DNA of 64,000 nucleotides from Haliscomenobacter sp. (GCF_965225875.1 NZ_CBDDBS010000003.1:2320701-2384700), one strand, 5' to 3'. Positions 15,543-61,886 are shown, counted from the stretch's first letter. Translations and numbers: made by a program. The notes: a model not told the origin generated them from the sequence alone.

Positions 15543-16472
15543 ATGGCTAATCAACAACTAAGCAGCAAACACCTCCTGGGCATCAAAGACCTCAGCACCG
15601 AGGACATTCGGTTGATTTTTCACACCGCCACCAATTTTAAGGAAGTCATCAATCGCCCCATCAAAAAAGTGCCTTCGCTGCGCGACATCACCATCGCCAA
15701 CCTCTTTTTTGAAGATTCGACCCGTACCAGGGTTTCCTTTGAGTTGGCAGAAAAACGCCTCTCGGCCGATACCATCAACTTCTCCGCTTCTTCTTCTTCG
15801 GTCAAAAAAGGGGAAACCCTGCTCGATACGGTGAACAACATCCTGTCCATGAAAGTGGACATGGTGGTGATGCGCCACCCCGCTCCCGGCGCCTGCCAGT
15901 TTTTGGCCCAACACATCGATGCCAACATCATCAACGCTGGCGACGGCACCCACGAGCACCCCACCCAGGCGCTGCTCGACGCCTTCTCCATGCAGGAGCA
16001 ATTGGGTGACCTGGAAGGCAAAAACGTGGCCATTTTCGGCGACATCCTGCACTCAAGGGTAGCCTTGAGCAATATCTTTTGCCTGCAAAAATTGGGGGCT
16101 AAAGTCCGGGTTTGTGGCCCCCCTACCCTCATGCCCAAGTTCATCCACAAACTGGGCGTAGGCGTAAGCTACAACGTGCGCGAAACCCTGCAATGGTGCG
16201 ATGTGGCCAACGTGCTGCGCATCCAACTGGAGCGCCAAAACATCAAATATTTCCCTACCCTGCGCGAGTATTCGCAGTACTTCGGTATCAATCGACAGTT
16301 GCTGGATTCCCTGGATAAAAAAATTGTGATCATGCACCCTGGGCCGATCAATCGTGGGGTGGAGATCACGAGTGATGTGGCGGATTCTGAGCATTCGATC
16401 ATTTTGCAACAGGTGGAGAATGGGGTCGCGGTAAGGATGGCGGTGTTGTTTTTGTTGGCGGCGAAGGGGTGA
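15543..16472 (+). CDS. pyrB: Aspartate carbamoyltransferase catalytic subunit
   Basis: FFEDSTRT, NAGDG, HPTQ, GDILHSRVA, MHPGP. Confidence 0.96.
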   Translation: MANQQLSSKHLLGIKDLSTEDIRLIFHTATNFKEVINRPIKKVPSLRDITIANLFFEDSTRTRVSFELAEKRLSADTINFSASSSSVKKGETLLDTVNNILSMKVDMVVMRHPAPGACQFLAQHIDANIINAGDGTHEHPTQALLDAFSMQEQLGDLEGKNVAIFGDILHSRVALSNIFCLQKLGAKVRVCGPPTLMPKFIHKLGVGVSYNVRETLQWCDVANVLRIQLERQNIKYFPTLREYSQYFGINRQLLDSLDKKIVIMHPGPINRGVEITSDVADSEHSIILQQVENGVAVRMAVLFLLAAKG

Positions 16473-16513
16473 GGGAGAACACGGAGAATTTTATCCAAAG
16501 CGACATTTCATTG

Positions 16514-16642
16514 GCACAAAGGACACAATGGAAAGCACAGAGGACACAAAGTTAGACGTAGACAAGGATTATTCTTTAGAAATATGACCTCTGTCAACAT
16601 CTAACTTTGTGTCCTTTGTGCATTCCATTGTGTCCTTTGTGC
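16514..16642. repeat. Palindromic element F: 43-bp inverted arms, each a duplicated ~21-nt GCACAAAGGACACAA unit
   Basis: Arms 16514-16556 and 16600-16642 match at 41/43 around a 43-bp spacer, between convergent pyrB and the GxxExxY gene. Confidence 0.9.
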
Positions 16643-16688
16643 TAAAAAATGCTGCTTTTGCTACTACCAAACACATTGTGTTCCTCTT

Positions 16689-17060
16689 TCACAAAATCAC
16701 GCGTCGCACCCCATCCCGAAACAGCAAGGTGTTGAAATTCATCAAAAGCCCCAAATTACAATCTGCCAACCGCAAATAAGTCAACAGTTGCGCCAAATGC
16801 ACATCGGTCAGGGATTCAACGGCCTTCAATTCTATGATCAACTTTTCCTCGACCACTAAATCAGCCCGATAGCCTACCTCAAGTTTCACCTCGTTGTAAA
16901 TCAAGGGAATCGCCTTTTGCTTCTCCACCTTGAGCCCCAATTGCTTCACCTCATAAGCTAAGCACTCCAGATACGCATTTTCCAACAATCCTGGCCCCAG
17001 GGCCTTGTGTACCTTCAAACCACACCCAATGGCCAATCTGGCCAGTTCATTCTCTGACAT
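16689..17060 (-). CDS. GxxExxY protein (PD-(D/E)XK nuclease superfamily)
   Basis: 123 aa with GPGLLENAY (GxxExxY), YRADLVV...IIELK (D...ExK) and GLLMNF. Confidence 0.92.
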   Translation of the reverse strand: MSENELARLAIGCGLKVHKALGPGLLENAYLECLAYEVKQLGLKVEKQKAIPLIYNEVKLEVGYRADLVVEEKLIIELKAVESLTDVHLAQLLTYLRLADCNLGLLMNFNTLLFRDGVRRVIL

Positions 17061-17159
17061 AAAACAACTTTAAAAAGTGAATAAAGAGAAAGGATGTGTA
17101 AACAATTAAGGCACTCCAAAAATAAGTATCTTTACGCTAATACCAAAACATCAGCTCGC

Positions 17160-18623
17160 ATGTTAGCCATCCAAAAAAGATTAGCACCTTCCTTTTACGC
17201 CCTGCTCAGTTTGCCCTCTACGGCCATGGGTTTTGCCTTGTCGGTTCAAATTTCCGCCTTAAGCTGGATCTTGAGTACCAAGTACGGCCTGGCCATTCAC
17301 GACATTGGCCTGGTTTGGGCAGCCGGGCCTATTGCCGGTATTTTTGGACAGGTTATTGTAGGCCTGATCAGCGACAATGTCTGGTTTTGGGGTGGCCGTC
17401 GCAGGCCCTTTATCCTGGTGGGGGGGGCATTGGCCGCCTTGATGCTGCTGGCATTGCCCAATATCGGCGTCATTTCAAAAGCCATGGGCACCGATGCCTT
17501 GTTGGGCGTAGCCATCACCGTGGCGCTCACGCTCGATTTGGCGATCAACATCAGCTTCAACCCGACCCGCTCGATCATTGCCGATGTTACGCCTGCGGGC
17601 GATGCTCGTACCAAGGGCTATACCTGGATGCAAACCATTTCAGGTACCTTTGGGGTAGCTGCTTATGCAATCGGCGCCATTTGGGGCAATTATACCCTGA
17701 TTTATTTTGGTGCCATCCTGGTTTTGCTCATTTCAGTGATCCCTCCTTTTTTTATCGAAGAACCTCGGACCTTACAAGCTGAAGCCGATACTGCCGATGT
17801 TCCTCAACAAAAAGCCTCTTTTTCACAAATCGTCGTTGCCATCAGTCCTTTATGGGGTTATCTGCTGTATGCATTGATTGGCATCATTGCCCGGCTTCTG
17901 GATCAACCGGTTAGTTCCCTGTTGCAAGGCATTTGTGTCGGACTGACTATTGGCAGCATTTTGTTGATCTTTTTGTTGAAAAAATCTGCCTTTGGCCCCA
18001 AATACGCCCATTTGATCGACTTTCAAAAAATCCTCGCTGCACATTCCTTTACTTGGCTGGGCATTCAAACCATGTTCGTGTACATGTTCGCCTACGTGCA
18101 ACAAAAAATAGTGGGGCTGAGCGATGACCAAATGGGGCAAGTGGTCTCCATCTCTTTTTTGATTTTTAATGCCATCGCGGCAGTGTTACCCGCCATTTTG
18201 TTGCAGCCACTGACCAGCAAAATTGGGCGGGTAAAAACCCACCTGATTTGTATTGCCATCATGGCCTTGGGCTACGCGAGTATATTTTTGTTTGGACATT
18301 CGGTGTTCAGTATTTATGTATTGATGGGTGTAGTGGGGATTGGTTGGGCAGCCACGGTAAGCTTACCTTTTGCCATCATGTCTCAAACCATTGATCAAAC
18401 ACGGATGGGGATGTTTATGGGTTTGTTCAATTTATCGGTAGTTTTACCGCAGTTGGTCGCCAGCCTGGGGGTGGGTGAAGCCATCAGTGCAGCCGAGGAC
18501 AAGGGTCTCATTTTTATCATTTGTGCCCTAAGTCTGGCAATATCTGCCGTTCTATGGTTGTTCATTAAAGACAGTCAAAGCAAAATTGAAACAGAAACGC
18601 TTGTATCTGGCGGAGGCCATTGA
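17160..18623 (+). CDS. MFS sugar transporter (sucrose/maltose-H+ symporter-like)
   Basis: About 12 TM segments, GLISDNVWFWGGRRRPFI, SFNPTRSIIADV. ATG 17160 preferred. Confidence 0.85.
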   Translation: MLAIQKRLAPSFYALLSLPSTAMGFALSVQISALSWILSTKYGLAIHDIGLVWAAGPIAGIFGQVIVGLISDNVWFWGGRRRPFILVGGALAALMLLALPNIGVISKAMGTDALLGVAITVALTLDLAINISFNPTRSIIADVTPAGDARTKGYTWMQTISGTFGVAAYAIGAIWGNYTLIYFGAILVLLISVIPPFFIEEPRTLQAEADTADVPQQKASFSQIVVAISPLWGYLLYALIGIIARLLDQPVSSLLQGICVGLTIGSILLIFLLKKSAFGPKYAHLIDFQKILAAHSFTWLGIQTMFVYMFAYVQQKIVGLSDDQMGQVVSISFLIFNAIAAVLPAILLQPLTSKIGRVKTHLICIAIMALGYASIFLFGHSVFSIYVLMGVVGIGWAATVSLPFAIMSQTIDQTRMGMFMGLFNLSVVLPQLVASLGVGEAISAAEDKGLIFIICALSLAISAVLWLFIKDSQSKIETETLVSGGGH

Positions 18624-20540: not shown

Positions 20541-20631
20541 AGTTGAGGAGTTGAGAAGTTGAGGAGTTGAGGCTGCCGCGTGCGACCCACTCCTCAACTT
20601 CTCAACTCCTCAACTCCTCAACTTTCTCAAC
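20541..20631. repeat. Palindromic element A: AGTTGAG(G/A) octamer arms, truncated GCTGCCGC core
   Basis: Four octamers (20541-20572) face four inverted octamers (20592-20623), 30/32 match. It fills the whole intergenic gap up to the next ATG. Confidence 0.9.
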
Positions 20632-22611
20632 ATGAAATATTTTATCCAAACCGGCTTACTTTTAGCTGGTCTGCTTATCATACAGCTGTTTACCAGTTTT
20701 AGCTGGAGCGTAATTCCGCCGGCCAAAACACCTACGGAAGACGATTATTACAAAATCATCACCCTCCCCACTACCGAAGGAATGCTCCTGGAGGTGGGTG
20801 GGATAACCACTTTGCAAGACGGTCGCCTGGCCCTTTGTACCCGCCGTGGAGATGTATACTTGGTAGAAAACCCGGAAATGACCAACGGGACTTTGCCTCG
20901 TTATAAACTTTTCGCCTCCGGATTGCACGAACCATTGGGACTTGCTTCCAAAGACAATGCCCTCTACGCCGCCCAACGGGGTGAACTCACCAAGTTGATG
21001 GATACCAATGGCGACGACGTAGCCGATGTGTACGAAACCGTATACGCCTGGCCTGTTTCCGGCCACTATCACGAGTATTCTTACGGACCAAAATTTGCGC
21101 CCGATGGCAGCATGTTTGTCACTGGCAACGTAGCATTTGGTGACCAGGAATGGTGGCGGGGTGAAAGTCGGGTCTTTGGCCGCGGCTGGACCATGCGCAT
21201 TACCCCCGATGGCAAAATGGAGCCCTGGGCAACCGGGATGCGTTCCCCTTGCGGTTTGGGCATGATCGATGGTGAGTTGTTTTACGACGACAACCAGGGC
21301 GATTACATGGGCTCCGGGGGTATCTGGCACGTTAAAAAAGGCGCCTTCACCGGTCACCCCGCTGGTTTGGTATGGACCGATAAAATTGCCAACTCTCCGG
21401 TAAAAATGACCGCTGATCAGTTCAATGCGGTGGTCGATCCCCGAAAAGTTAAAAACTCAACTGGCGGGTACGAAAAACCCGAAAACATCGCCACCGAAAC
21501 CAACCCAAACACCCTTTTTGCCGTAAAAAGTAAATTGCCGGAAGTAACCTTACCTGCGGTTTGGTTGCCGCACGGGATTTTGGGCATTTCCAATTCTGAA
21601 ATTTTGCCCGATCAAACCAAAGGTGGATTTGGACCTTTTGCCGGTCAGGTTTTTGTAGGGGACCAGGGCCAAAGTCGCGTGATGCGCGTGGTGCTGGAAA
21701 AAGTGAAGGGTGAATACCAAGGGGTGGCCTTTGATTTCCGCAGCGGCTTCCAATCGGGAATCCTGCGCATGACCTGGGGTCACGATGGTTCATTGTACGT
21801 AGGTGAAACCAATCGCGGTTGGGGTTCAGCTGGAACGGCCACTTCTGGCTTGCAACGCCTGGCCTGGACAGGTAAAGTGCCGATGGAAATGAAAACGGTT
21901 CGTGCGATGCCTGATGGATTTGAGATTGAGTTCACCTTGCCCGTTGACAAAGCCAGCGCCGAAAATCTCGCTTCCTATTCCGGCAAAAACTTCATCTACA
22001 AATACCACCCAGTATACGGCAGCCCGCCCATCAGCGATACGCCGCTCGGCATCAAAGGGGTGAAAGTATCCGAAGATGGTCTGAAAGTGCGTTTGGTGAT
22101 CGACAACATCAAACAATACTACTTGCACGAAATCAAGGTGGATGGGATTCGTTCGCGTGATGGTTTACCCGTTTTGCACCCAACTGCCTACTACACCCTC
22201 AACAACATTCCAGACGGAGCTAAATTGAGCATGGCAGAAGTAAGTACCAAAAGAATGGAAGCCACGCCAGAAAAGGTGCTTGAAGAGGTGAAAGTTAAAG
22301 TACCCAAGGCCAAAAAGGGCAAAGAAACGGTAGAAGCCAAGGCACCTACTTACGATAAGGTACAACCCTTGTTGGCCAAGTGGACTTGTTTGGGTTGCCA
22401 CAACACCAACACCCGGCAGGTTGGCCCTTCTTTTATCGATATCGCCAAGCGCAAGTACAGCAACGAGCGCATCGTAGAATTGATTCACAAACCTGAGCCT
22501 AAAAACTGGCCCGAATACGCTACCGAAATGGCACCGATGTCTCAGGTACCGAAGGCGGATGCTTTGAAAATGGCGGCATGGATTAATTCTTTGCGGCAGG
22601 AAACACCTTAA
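20632..22611 (+). CDS. Glucose/sorbosone dehydrogenase-like beta-propeller with C-terminal class I cytochrome c
   Basis: Propeller motifs GLHEPLGL, GMRSPCG, YVGETNRGWG. Heme motif CLGCH, VGPSF and a distal Met region EMAPM. Confidence 0.72.
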   Translation: MKYFIQTGLLLAGLLIIQLFTSFSWSVIPPAKTPTEDDYYKIITLPTTEGMLLEVGGITTLQDGRLALCTRRGDVYLVENPEMTNGTLPRYKLFASGLHEPLGLASKDNALYAAQRGELTKLMDTNGDDVADVYETVYAWPVSGHYHEYSYGPKFAPDGSMFVTGNVAFGDQEWWRGESRVFGRGWTMRITPDGKMEPWATGMRSPCGLGMIDGELFYDDNQGDYMGSGGIWHVKKGAFTGHPAGLVWTDKIANSPVKMTADQFNAVVDPRKVKNSTGGYEKPENIATETNPNTLFAVKSKLPEVTLPAVWLPHGILGISNSEILPDQTKGGFGPFAGQVFVGDQGQSRVMRVVLEKVKGEYQGVAFDFRSGFQSGILRMTWGHDGSLYVGETNRGWGSAGTATSGLQRLAWTGKVPMEMKTVRAMPDGFEIEFTLPVDKASAENLASYSGKNFIYKYHPVYGSPPISDTPLGIKGVKVSEDGLKVRLVIDNIKQYYLHEIKVDGIRSRDGLPVLHPTAYYTLNNIPDGAKLSMAEVSTKRMEATPEKVLEEVKVKVPKAKKGKETVEAKAPTYDKVQPLLAKWTCLGCHNTNTRQVGPSFIDIAKRKYSNERIVELIHKPEPKNWPEYATEMAPMSQVPKADALKMAAWINSLRQETP

Positions 22612-22613
22612 AT

Positions 22614-22707
22614 AAAGATGAAAGATGAGAGATGCTACCGCAGAGACTTTGACAAGGTCATTGTCAAAAACGCTGCGGTAGCATCTCTCATCTTTCATCT
22701 CTCATCT
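22614..22707. repeat. Palindromic element D: A(A/G)AGATG heptamer arms, GCTACCGC...GCGGTAGC core, inner TTTGACAA hairpin
   Basis: Arms 22614-22643 and 22673-22702 match at 29/30. Inner hairpin TTTGACAA-GGTCA-TTGTCAAA at 22648-22668. Confidence 0.9.
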
Positions 22708-23745
22708 CTACTTCCCGCCCGTATACATCTTACAATCCACTCTGAATTCAATAAAGCGCTGATTGTTGGTTTCCAGAATTTCAGTGATTTTCAAACCTGG
22801 ATCTACAATTCCTCCCAGGTAAAAGTTTCTTCCACAGTAGTTGTGCAAATCCACCATCGGTAGCTTCATGTCATTCACATAGTAGATTTGTGAAGCGCCT
22901 GGCGCCAGGGTTTTAGTGTTGGAAATTCGTCCACCTATCACCAGTTTGTCTTCGGGGAACTGCCCAGCAACAGCTAACGGCGCATAGGCCATTGGTGCAG
23001 CGGTATTGGACGAGGTGATGATGTCCACCATATAGCCATTCGCAGGATCAGTATCCGTACCAACAGCAGGGCCAGTACCAATGTTTTTTACCTCAATTTT
23101 GAAGTCAGAAAAAGGCAAACCAGGGCCACCTACGGGATTGGCCAGGGCCATGTAGGTAATCACGAGATCAGGGCGAGGTGCGGTAGTTGAACCACTGCAA
23201 TCCAGTTTCACCCGAACAAAGCGGGTATTGTCATTTTCATTGGTTTCAGCTACTTTTTTACCGGGGTCGGCAATAGCACCGATGGCCACGTAGCCCAATT
23301 GGCAAGGTTTAGCAATTACTTTGGGCATTGGGAAACTTTCCAGGTAGGTGTCTTCCTGACCAGGAGCCAAAGTTTTGGTGTTGCTGTAGCGACCGCCGAT
23401 CACCAGCATGTCTTCCTGGTATTCGTAGGGGTTAGGTACTACTGCAAAGGCGATTGGTGCACTGGCATCGGTTGACAAAACCAGGTCAACCATATAGCCT
23501 TTGGCGGGGTCATCCAGGGTGCCGATGGCTTTGGCAGAGCCGATGTTTTTTACGGTTACTTTGCAATTGACCGTTTCACCTGGCACGTACACCGGTTTTT
23601 CTGGAACAATATTGGTAATGACCAGATTGGGGGCCGCAGCGGTTAACGCAGAAGGATTGACCACTAATGGGTTTTGAGCGGATGCCAAAATTGTGACCAA
23701 AGAGGCTACAAAAGTGAAAAGTGCGTTGAAGCTTAACTTTTTCAT
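22708..23745 (-). CDS. Exported protein with two tandem CARDB-like domains
   Basis: Signal peptide MKKLSFNALFTFVASLVTILASAQ (ATG 23745). Two repeats of P(N/D)LVIT...VKNIG...DPG.K..E..E.(D/N)N. No T9SS CTD. Confidence 0.78.
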   Translation of the reverse strand: MKKLSFNALFTFVASLVTILASAQNPLVVNPSALTAAAPNLVITNIVPEKPVYVPGETVNCKVTVKNIGSAKAIGTLDDPAKGYMVDLVLSTDASAPIAFAVVPNPYEYQEDMLVIGGRYSNTKTLAPGQEDTYLESFPMPKVIAKPCQLGYVAIGAIADPGKKVAETNENDNTRFVRVKLDCSGSTTAPRPDLVITYMALANPVGGPGLPFSDFKIEVKNIGTGPAVGTDTDPANGYMVDIITSSNTAAPMAYAPLAVAGQFPEDKLVIGGRISNTKTLAPGASQIYYVNDMKLPMVDLHNYCGRNFYLGGIVDPGLKITEILETNNQRFIEFRVDCKMYTGGK

Positions 23746-23874
23746 TGGGATGTTTTTATCAAGGTTAAAGATGTTTTGATTAAAGACCTTACATCCCAAT
23801 GTGTCAAACGCAGTTTGTTCCGTTCCACTTTTTTTTATTTTTTTGTAACCATTTAGCAGCCGCCTGCGGCGGAA

Positions 23875-23960
23875 TTTTTCACCACAAAGGCACAAAGACA
23901 CAAAGACATTAAGCTCTAAAATGTTGTGTCTTTGTGCCTTTGTGCCTTTGTGGTGAAAAA
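23875..23960. repeat. Palindromic element E: CACAAAG(G/A) octamer arms with TTTTTCACCAC termini
   Basis: Arms 23875-23908 and 23927-23960 match at 33/34. Termini identical to element H. Confidence 0.9.
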
Positions 23961-24021
23961 AATTGAATGTGAAATCCACCGCAGGTGGATGGGCGCTAAA
24001 TAGTTATATTTTTTTAACTGC

Positions 24022-61433: not shown

Positions 61434-61886
61434 ATGGGACAATCTCTAGTAAAGAACTACATCCACATCGTATTCAGCACCAAATACCGCCAGCAGCTGA
61501 TCTACCCGCCTTATGAGCAGGAGCTGCACAGTTACCTGGGGGGGATATGCAATGAGCTGGGCTGTCAATCCATCATCGTGGGAGGGTATACTGATCATGT
61601 GCATATTCTGTGCCTCTTATCCAAAAAGATAGCGCTGATGGACTTGGTGGAAAAGGTGAAAGCCAATTCTTCGAAATGGTTCAAGACGAGGCATGAATCG
61701 CTTAAGAATTTTTACTGGCAGGACGGGTATGGGGCCTTTTCGGTAAATCCAAAACAAGTAGACATTGTGATTAGGTACATTGCCAACCAACATGAACACC
61801 ACCGAAAAAAGGACTTCCAAGCGGAATACAGGGCTTTTTTGAAAAAGTACAAAGTAGAATATGATGAGCGCTACGTTTGGGAGTAA
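61434..61886 (+). mobile_element. tnpA: IS200/IS605-family Y1 HUH transposase (TnpA / RAYT-like)
   Basis: 150 aa; YIHIVFSTKYR, HUH motif DHVHIL, WQDGYGAFSV, catalytic Tyr in YIANQHEHH. Confidence 0.9.

Follow-up and report, generated by a model that had tools for sequence, protein, structure and literature searches.

The window, the whole 64,000-nt stretch of DNA that was analysed, is part of an 8.37-Mb Haliscomenobacter genome in three contigs. In this window pyrB (15543–16472, plus strand) is convergent with a GxxExxY gene (16689–17060, minus strand), a complete palindrome of 166 bp (16495–16660) is located between them, and on the other side of the GxxExxY gene lies an MFS gene divergent from it. 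The GxxExxY gene encodes a protein of 123 aa with a PD-(D/E)XK fold and intact E...D...ExK residues, which over its full length matches both PF13366 PDDEXK_3 (E 3.5e-39, 134 bits against a cut-off of 22) and TIGR04256 GxxExxY (E 7e-40, 136 bits against a cut-off of 35). The motif GLLENAY, which provides the E, together with D67 and E77-L-K79 (E77-x-K79), is present in the window protein and invariant across an alignment of 37 sequences. The protein is therefore a member of the GxxExxY family, since both curated cut-offs are exceeded and the motif and catalytic residues are present, and the stand-alone gene with intact catalytic residues described in the first-pass annotation is borne out by profiles and alignment. 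The gene is under purifying selection, with Ka/Ks values of 0.06–0.09 among four orthologous or allelic copies.

The AlphaFold2 model of the protein (pLDDT 84) has the alpha-alpha-beta-beta-beta-alpha-beta order of the PD-(D/E)XK core; in the PDB it finds Cas4 SSO0001 and lambda exonuclease as the best, though weak, fold matches (E about 2e-3, TM 0.47–0.58), and tRNA-splicing endonucleases are also among the weak matches. A sequence search of the PDB gave nothing at E <= 1, PHROGs gave no match, and PADLOC returned a faint Cas4 match only. The PF13366 family is very large, with at least 7981 homologues at E <= 1e-5, and is listed as 'unknown' in a large survey of PD-(D/E)XK proteins; in the literature searched, no account of a pairing of GxxExxY genes with palindromes was found, and the mentions of GxxExxY concern other topics and report no function.

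Upstream of the gene, on the minus strand, the segment 17061–17112 is a 5' leader and probable promoter region which contains AAAGAGAAAGGATGTGTAAAC and is inherited with the gene. This leader is conserved in the genome G011, in G004, where the gene itself is deleted, and at an unlinked copy in H. hydrossis (GAAAGGATGTGG). Because of this conservation the ATG at 17094 listed as the start of the MFS gene is probably false, and the start is more likely at 17160.

The palindrome, separated by about 28 nt from the GxxExxY stop codon, consists of two arms of 54 nt each (16511–16564 and 16592–16645), 91% complementary, separated by a loop of 27 nt (16565–16591). The 43-nt arm core reported earlier, with 41 of 43 positions paired, is confirmed by direct reading at 16515–16557 and 16601–16643, and the element, whose ends were set by comparison with 39 full copies, reaches further out than first described, to the conserved termini CCAAAGCGACA and TGCTGCTTTTG. 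The left terminus (16495–16513), conserved in most of the 39 copies, is formed by CCAAAGCGACA (16495–16505) and a T-rich linker, TTTCATTG; CCAAAGCGACA occurs 68 times in the genome compared to 3.7 expected and also terminates a second family whose arms are made of GCGGAT words. In the left arm (16514–16564) two units of 20–21 nt, GCACAAAGGACACAA and GCACAGAGGACACAA, composed of CACAAAG-type heptamers, are followed by the core TTAGACGTAGAC, and the right arm (16592–16645) is its inverted complement. The loop and the inner arm ends contain the core pair TTAGACGT(A/T)GAC...GTCAACATCTAA, which is common to other hairpin families, and the GACGTTGAC/GTCAAC core is also found between arms and gene in gene-bearing cassettes of other clades. 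The right terminus (16646–16660) is an A-run followed by TGCTGCTTTTG (16650–16660), a degenerate form of TGTCGCTTTGG.

The arms are direct tandem units, themselves not palindromic; the arm unit occurs four times in this element, 0.19 occurrences being expected for the whole window. As single-stranded DNA the palindrome has a predicted folding energy of -58.3 kcal/mol, compared to -16.8 +/- 2.9 for shuffled sequences (z = -14). Against Rfam, only sub-threshold matches to plant and animal microRNA precursors were obtained, which are typical of any long hairpin. A simple scan also indicates a sigma-70-like TTGACA-18-AATAAT on the minus strand in the loop. The degenerate outer copies of the repeat proposed in the first-pass annotation do exist, as GAGAACAC (16475–16482, right after the pyrB stop codon) and GTGTTCCTC (16678–16686, 2 nt from the GxxExxY stop codon and conserved in G011), which pair imperfectly with each other; they measure merely 8–9 nt and are no general feature of the family. 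Relatives carry GAGGACACAG or GAGGATAC at the position after pyrB, which taken alone is weak evidence.

Association of GxxExxY genes with palindromes

Three GxxExxY genes are present in this genome and all of them touch a tandem-word palindrome, each of a different family. The window gene adjoins a complete palindrome rather than sitting inside it, the second gene (C2:1167051–1167442) is located between both arms of an E-type element (see below), and the third (C2:4004130–4004642) has a palindrome of CACCTTAG words about 15 nt past its stop. When all PF13366 genes from 12 Haliscomenobacter genomes were collected, each of the 34 bona fide genes proved to have either inverted arms on its flanks or a complete palindrome immediately after it, the arms reaching up to 91 nt (86 matches). 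As a control, the same detector was applied to 400 random genes of 110–170 aa from this genome: flanking inverted arms are present at 20/28 GxxExxY genes and at 5/400 controls (1.25%; Fisher p = 1.3e-23), and in a phylum sample with one gene per genome they are present at 14/29 (p = 1.1e-14). The enrichment of such repeats at GxxExxY flanks, proposed earlier as a check, is thus found both in the genus and in the phylum sample.

The protein clades coincide with the word types of the palindromes, namely CGGAT, CACCTAAG, CGACG, CGGAGT, CACAGATT, CACAAAT, and two CACAAAG families. This match owes much to orthologous loci, but not all of it, as the CGGAT clade occurs at several unrelated loci and the E clade at different loci in G000 and G002. 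In H. hydrossis a homologue of the window protein with 79% identity is encoded at C1:5.72 Mb, distant from both pyrB (1.23 Mb) and the MFS operon (near 7.95 Mb); its stop is followed after about 5 nt by a perfect palindrome of GCACAAGGGACACAAAG with 40-nt arms, and the GAAAGGATGTG leader again precedes it. The occurrence of palindrome, gene, and leader at this unlinked locus, together with the clade match at non-orthologous loci, indicates that the three parts travel together. Gene and palindrome are thus one inherited unit and their association is not due to chance. That the palindrome is just one of many 3'-end hairpins, fallen by accident between pyrB and an unrelated small gene, might be entertained because 15–17% of all genes here have a long inverted repeat within 60–100 nt of the stop and only three GxxExxY genes are present in the genome; however, chance adjacency is contradicted by the enrichment tests (34/34 in the genus, 20/28 against 5/400 for flanking arms) and by the H. 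hydrossis unit, so that coincidence is to be regarded as extremely improbable.

The site after pyrB has a different content in different species. In the sister species G001 and G008 the palindrome, the gene, about 110 nt, a second palindrome, and the MFS gene follow in this order, the gene being bracketed by palindromes; in G000 and G011 only the first palindrome and the gene precede the MFS gene. In G004 the left arm and half of the loop are joined straight to the 5' leader of the cassette, in G005 the left terminus is fused, with a GGCAC microhomology, to sequence upstream of the MFS gene, and in G002, G006, G009, and the more distant genomes other DNA is present. The unit is therefore kept in four species, two of which have the second palindrome 5' of the gene, and reduced by deletion in two more; stable synteny of the gene with pyrB, which would have spoken against a mobile unit, is not observed, since the gene is there in only 4 of the 12 genus genomes. 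The deletion in G004 took the right arm and the gene, with one endpoint in the hairpin tip; the AGACAT found there was considered as a remnant of the gene start and rejected, as it belongs to the hairpin loop. As G004 and G005 retain partial remnants of the palindrome, their gene-less pyrB-MFS junctions are products of internal deletion and not of clean excision.

Between the one- and two-palindrome alleles at the pyrB site Ks is 1.2–1.45, about fourfold that of the adjacent pyrB in the same pairs (0.27–0.40). The cassette has therefore a deeper or different history than its flank, which implies that it has been exchanged at the site. Moreover, a patch of about 800 bp that includes the cassette is 100% identical between two loci of G010, while their outer flanks are 80–97% identical, a pattern that, judged by sequence identity, is the signature of recent gene conversion. 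The parts of the cassette are thus inherited, exchanged, and relocated together.

Dispersed hairpin families and element E

The genome contains about 1000 inverted repeats whose arms measure 22 nt or more, and in many of them the arms are made of tandem words of 7–10 nt such as GTTGAGGA, GATGAGT, AAAGATG, CTAAGGTG, AATGACGAAT, and CGGAT. These hairpins are intergenic, are located nearly all at gene 3' ends, and occupy a large share of the inter-gene space of the 8.4-Mb genome. A genome-wide search with a 15-nt unit, allowing up to 2 mismatches, gave 302 matches of the arm unit in 127 clusters, 82 of which have at least 2 units and 39 the full ++-- (two-forward, two-reverse) architecture, and the family of the window palindrome counts about 80 gene-less loci. 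The same repeat is hence found as gene-less copies elsewhere and as a palindrome directly by the gene, the two features that define a cassette of this kind. Short-form copies have one TTAGACGTTGAC core as the loop, while in long-form copies two inverted cores surround 60–70 nt and a TCATCCCGAATTT motif is conserved at the ends.

The 82 multi-unit loci lie between convergent genes in 34 cases, between tandem genes in 41, and between divergent genes in 2, against a genome background of 17%, 65%, and 18%, respectively; this convergent excess and divergent scarcity show that the elements occupy the 3' ends of genes. Such positions would suit a housekeeping pair in which the hairpins are 3'-end structures of transcripts, acting in termination, mRNA stabilisation, or insulation of convergent genes, and the GxxExxY protein processes or resolves them, in analogy with RNase III excising 23S rRNA intervening sequences or with a cruciform resolvase protecting replication. 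The great stability of the hairpins, the purifying selection and partly vertical inheritance of the gene, and the tRNA-splicing endonucleases among the weak fold matches are in line with this explanation. However, no U-run follows the hairpin, as the T-run and the A-run pair together, and an intrinsic (Rho-independent) terminator was rejected on the basis of this pairing, of the 54-nt arms, and of a simple scan that finds none at the element. Furthermore, a housekeeping role leaves the layout with the gene inside the arms and the target duplications described below unexplained, the hairpins at the same site differ among close species, and the cognate gene has been lost from genomes that contain hundreds of hairpins, all of which make it improbable.

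The turnover of gene-less hairpins was followed by comparing the segment 20300–24300 of the window with the genus. Hairpin A (20541–20632) is present in three species and absent in three, element E (23845–24007) is absent in G001 and G005, and hairpin D (22614–22710) is found at the orthologous site in seven species. Hairpin D has a conserved core, GCTRCCGCAG...TTGTCAAAAACGCTGCGGYAGC, but its arm words vary among species, being GATGAAA/GATGAGA, GACGAAT, GATGAGT, or GATGAAT, and in H. hydrossis an array of 14-mers; homogenisation of the words within each element and on both arms indicates concerted evolution. At another site the same gap holds different hairpin families in different species. 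Gene-less hairpins are therefore gained, lost, and replaced between species.

Element E had been considered to share the unit of the window palindrome; it does contain related CACAAAG heptamers, but it is a member of another family, which has terminal inverted repeats of its own. It is present in 25 copies in the genome, with terminal inverted repeats of 14 bp (GTAACTATTTAGCA), and target duplications of 8 bp are perfect in 21 of the 25 copies and have one mismatch in 2 more, while in a shifted control none had fewer than 2 mismatches. Element E is thus a classical MITE, and real transposition is shown by a family related to that of the window. In H. hydrossis a gene-bearing E-type element of 608 bp shows homology to the MITE along its full length and has the duplication GAAAAAAG on both sides; this duplication counts because the ends of the element were fixed beforehand by homology. 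No empty pre-insertion site was found for the 608-bp element, G006 having a remnant of about 35 nt and the other genomes being rearranged there. A generic scan of 63 gene-bearing loci for 8-bp duplications with terminal repeats gave 12 matches compared to 6 in the shifted control and is too noisy to be relied on. For the CACAAAG-core palindrome family no target duplication was found, though its ends are conserved (CCAAAGCGACA, and the end motif of the long form).

Staggered target duplications of 8 bp are typical of DDE transposases and, to our knowledge, are unprecedented for a lone PD-(D/E)XK protein of 120–130 aa. The ends of IS66 elements start with GTAA and these elements make 8-bp duplications, for which reason an IS66-type origin of E was considered; it was rejected, as the genome lacks a PF03050 gene and a longer element carrying the E terminal repeats. 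No recognisable transposase ORF and no DDE, serine, or tyrosine recombinase is associated with the E family.

The nuclease and the spread of the hairpins

Based on these data, the feature between pyrB and the MFS gene is best explained as one partly decayed copy of a palindrome-associated GxxExxY cassette comprising the palindrome, the gene, and a leader that measures at least about 50 nt, counted from 17061. In the mechanism proposed for such cassettes, the GxxExxY nuclease would recognise, as a hairpin or cruciform, either the word array proper to it or the conserved GACGTTGAC core, and would cut there; the break would in turn set off duplication of the cassette or of hairpins lacking the gene, through repair and gene conversion where a site is already occupied or through insertion where it is new. 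Its activity would sustain the population of cognate hairpins in the manner of RAYT transposases acting on REPINs. That the nuclease mobilises the hairpins in this way is suggested by genome comparison with somewhat less than even odds.

The number of cognate-word copies is 106–193 in five genomes with the cognate gene and 149 and 92 in two genomes with a recent deletion, while in genomes without the gene it is 45 in G006 and 0–4 in the four most distant ones, a trend that fits a RAYT-like dependence and is confounded by phylogeny. The minimal mobile unit proposed in the first-pass annotation stands as regards the gene-palindrome unit, its relocation, the excess of gene-less copies, and the gene-bearing and gene-less E forms sharing ends and 8-bp duplication; against it are the position of the gene beside the palindrome, the lack of clean excision, and the lack of target duplication in the CACAAAG-core family. 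Similarly, the gene-less palindromes far outnumber the gene-bearing ones, as expected of its derivatives, but none of the 34 GxxExxY genes of the 12 genus genomes is partnered with the most abundant hairpin families, those of GTTGAGGA, GATGAGT/AAAGATG, and AATGACGAAT words.

This last observation is one of those in favour of the main rival explanation, in which the palindromes are a mobile or recombining vehicle, spread by a trans-acting transposase or by host replication and repair, and GxxExxY, a small gene of selfish or accessory nature, lodges in or beside them, for example by homing into loops, and rides without mobilising them. Inverted arms of this kind also enclose both four-helix-bundle (PF05635) genes found in the genome, so that the palindromic vehicle can carry a non-nuclease gene and the enclosed gene need not be the mobilising enzyme. 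In addition, G004, whose single GxxExxY gene is of the non-cognate CACCTAAG type, still has 149 CACAAAG-core words, as well as perfect E terminal repeats that number at least 12 and in several cases are at contig ends; the terminal repeats and 8-bp duplication of E resemble DDE-type transposition; and orthologous sites keep the hairpin core and rewrite the arm words (GATGAAA, GACGAAT, GATGAGT) with no gene near. On the other hand, no candidate mobiliser was found, as there is no longer element with E ends and no IS66 DDE transposase and the RAYT-like genes pair with other repeats, and the strict match of clades and words at non-orthologous loci would need sequence-specific lodging. The strong purifying selection and the intact catalytic residues also imply that the nuclease activity matters to something. 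A passenger role of GxxExxY is accordingly a serious possibility, although not a probable one.

A further candidate mobiliser is provided by the 6–8 PF01797 genes of the genome, one of which is located in the window at about 61452–61790: the hairpins could be ordinary REPINs mobilised by these Y1 tyrosine transposases. However, those Y1 genes that have adjacent repeats are all accompanied by short GC-rich REP hairpins, such as CCCACGGATAAATCCGTGGG and AACCCCGAAGGGGTG, and none by tandem-word palindromes; this explanation was rejected, as the Y1/RAYT-like genes are flanked by different repeats, and is very improbable.

A broader proposal is conceivable in which GxxExxY proteins would be the catalytic part of unrecognised minimal mobile elements of about 0.5–0.6 kb, consisting of a nuclease of 120–135 aa within arrays of its own recognition words; these elements would transpose with an 8-bp target duplication, as in the 608-bp E-type element of H. 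hydrossis, overwrite resident hairpins by break-induced gene conversion, and seed gene-less hairpins, which number hundreds to thousands between genes in Bacteroidota and other phyla. The proposal is conceivable but not probable.

Comparison with known systems and implications

Of the systems described so far, REPIN-RAYT systems, or REPtrons (PMC3116915, Bertels & Rainey 2011; PMC3333891, Ton-Hoang et al. 2012; PMC3733652), and 23S rRNA intervening sequences come closest. REPIN-RAYT systems share with the cassettes a low-copy, largely vertical gene flanked by a palindromic repeat that is also found in tens to hundreds of gene-less intergenic copies, a repeat variant proper to each gene lineage, and the location of the repeats in extragenic 3' regions. 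In contrast, the enzyme here is a PD-(D/E)XK nuclease of 120–135 aa instead of a Y1/HUH tyrosine transposase, words of 7–10 nt arrayed in tandem make up the arms where REPINs have doublets of GC-rich REP hairpins of 20–40 nt, and the true RAYT/REP pairs of this genome stand apart from the word-array palindromes. The cassettes are thus not members of the REPIN-RAYT class, as they have neither a Y1 gene nor a doublet of REP hairpins, and, unlike the E family, REPINs are not known to us to make 8-bp target duplications.

The IS200/IS605 elements and the PATEs are also similar, since subterminal hairpins are the recognised feature there and short hairpin-only derivatives exist; the units described here differ in being devoid of TnpA (Y1) and TnpB and in having far longer hairpins made of tandem words. 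As in MITEs and their autonomous parents, the E family combines 14-bp terminal inverted repeats, 8-bp duplications, and 25 short copies with a longer ORF-bearing form homologous throughout, but its ORF is not a recognisable transposase and the CACAAAG-core family is found without target duplication.

Intervening sequences of 23S rRNA that carry an S23p ORF are found in Leptospira. Like the cassettes, they are units of about 0.4–0.6 kb with a long stem of inverted ends enclosing one small ORF, and their ORF family, PF05635, is the one that sits in the tandem-word palindromes of this genome. In contrast to them, the unit in the window lies between the protein-coding genes pyrB and MFS and not in rRNA, its cargo has a nuclease fold, and the gene is beside the stem and not enclosed by it. 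In Coxiella burnetii the S23p ORF of these intervening sequences encodes a four-helix bundle (PMC4990558).

The consistent pairing with word-array palindromes gives the uncharacterised GxxExxY family a concrete and testable substrate and role, and it points to the origin of the approximately 1000 intergenic hairpins of this genome. In practical terms, hairpin elements of this kind break short-read assemblies and create false start codons in annotation, as is probably the case at 17094. If the nuclease does not drive the hairpins, an abundant vehicle with some other mobiliser is present in these bacteria. If it does, the hairpins would represent a novel kind of mobile DNA in bacteria, from which programmable nucleases with specificity for hairpins or for short DNA words might be obtained; were the reading as minimal elements true, the cassettes would constitute a second, RAYT-independent system of repeat plus enzyme and would be among the smallest autonomous DNA elements.

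Start codon, patches and ends of the cassette family

The GxxExxY cassette of the window carries, 5' of its nuclease gene, a conserved leader (GAAAGGATGTGT). The annotated start codon of the neighbouring MFS gene, an ATG at 17094, falls within this leader; the true MFS start is probably the ATG at 17160 (MLAIQKRL...). The copy of the cassette in H. hydrossis has the same leader, with no MFS gene after it. In another genome of the genus, G010, the loci L047 and L051 are 100% identical to each other over about 800 bp, a patch in which a GxxExxY cassette of the CGGAT type lies, and the paralogous flanks of this patch show 80–97% identity; this pattern suggests a recent gene conversion between paralogous sites.

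The long-form CACAAAG elements, members of the family of the window palindrome with two inverted cores, are present in several species as copies of about 228 bp that are 88–93% identical (for example, C2:3778472-3778699 in G000, the source genome of the window). Their terminal sequence is (A)ACATGA(A/G)TCATCCCGAATTT, corresponding to an outward reading AAATTCGGGATGA...CATGTT. The TCATCCCGAATTT motif is also seen beside other repeats and as small hairpins, and it may represent the end of the element, a repeat of its own, or the context of a start codon or leader.

Variation of hairpins and of element E among genomes

Hairpin D (window 22614-22710), a word-array palindrome, is orthologous in seven species, in which the core is kept and the words of the arms vary (GATGAAA, GACGAAT, GATGAGT, GATGAAT or a 14-mer array); the conserved core together with arm words that differ between species therefore indicates concerted evolution of the words, and of the two arms, while the hairpin stays at a single fixed site. 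The intergenic hairpin A (window 20541-20632), which is made of GTTGAGGA words, spans exactly the whole gap from the stop codon of the upstream gene to the ATG of the next one; the hairpin is missing in genomes G004, G008 and G011, where the gap is 14–15 nt.

Element E (window 23845-24007) is a MITE of 163 bp with the terminal inverted repeats GTAACCATTTAGCA and CGCTAAATAGTTAT, bracketed by an 8-bp target duplication, ATTTTTTT, at 23837-23844 and 24008-24015 (whole feature 23837-24015). Its family counts 25 copies in the genome, 21 of which have perfect duplications, and the orthologous site of the window copy is without the element in G001 and G005. In at least eight contigs of G004 an E-type terminal repeat lies about 118–141 nt from the contig end; the short-read assembly of this genome was probably broken by an E-type element, whose copies within G004 are probably highly alike. 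An E-clade GxxExxY gene was not found in the G004 assembly.

RAYT-like genes and a second cargo

The window also carries a RAYT-like Y1 transposase gene (PF01797) at 61452-61790 (C3:2382152-2382490 in G000), besides which five further full-length loci were detected in the genome. The repeats adjoining these genes, where present, are classical GC-rich REP hairpins, such as GCCCTTTCAGGGC near the window copy, and this REP repeat system is distinct from the word-array palindromes.

Two genes of the PF05635 four-helix-bundle family (23S rRNA IVS protein family) are encoded in the G000 genome, at C2:595841-596327 and C2:2399454-2400051, and both sit within inverted arms, of 37 nt in the first and of 51 nt in the second, the latter being built of AATGACGAAT words. 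The four-helix-bundle protein is a second type of cargo in the same kind of palindrome as GxxExxY.
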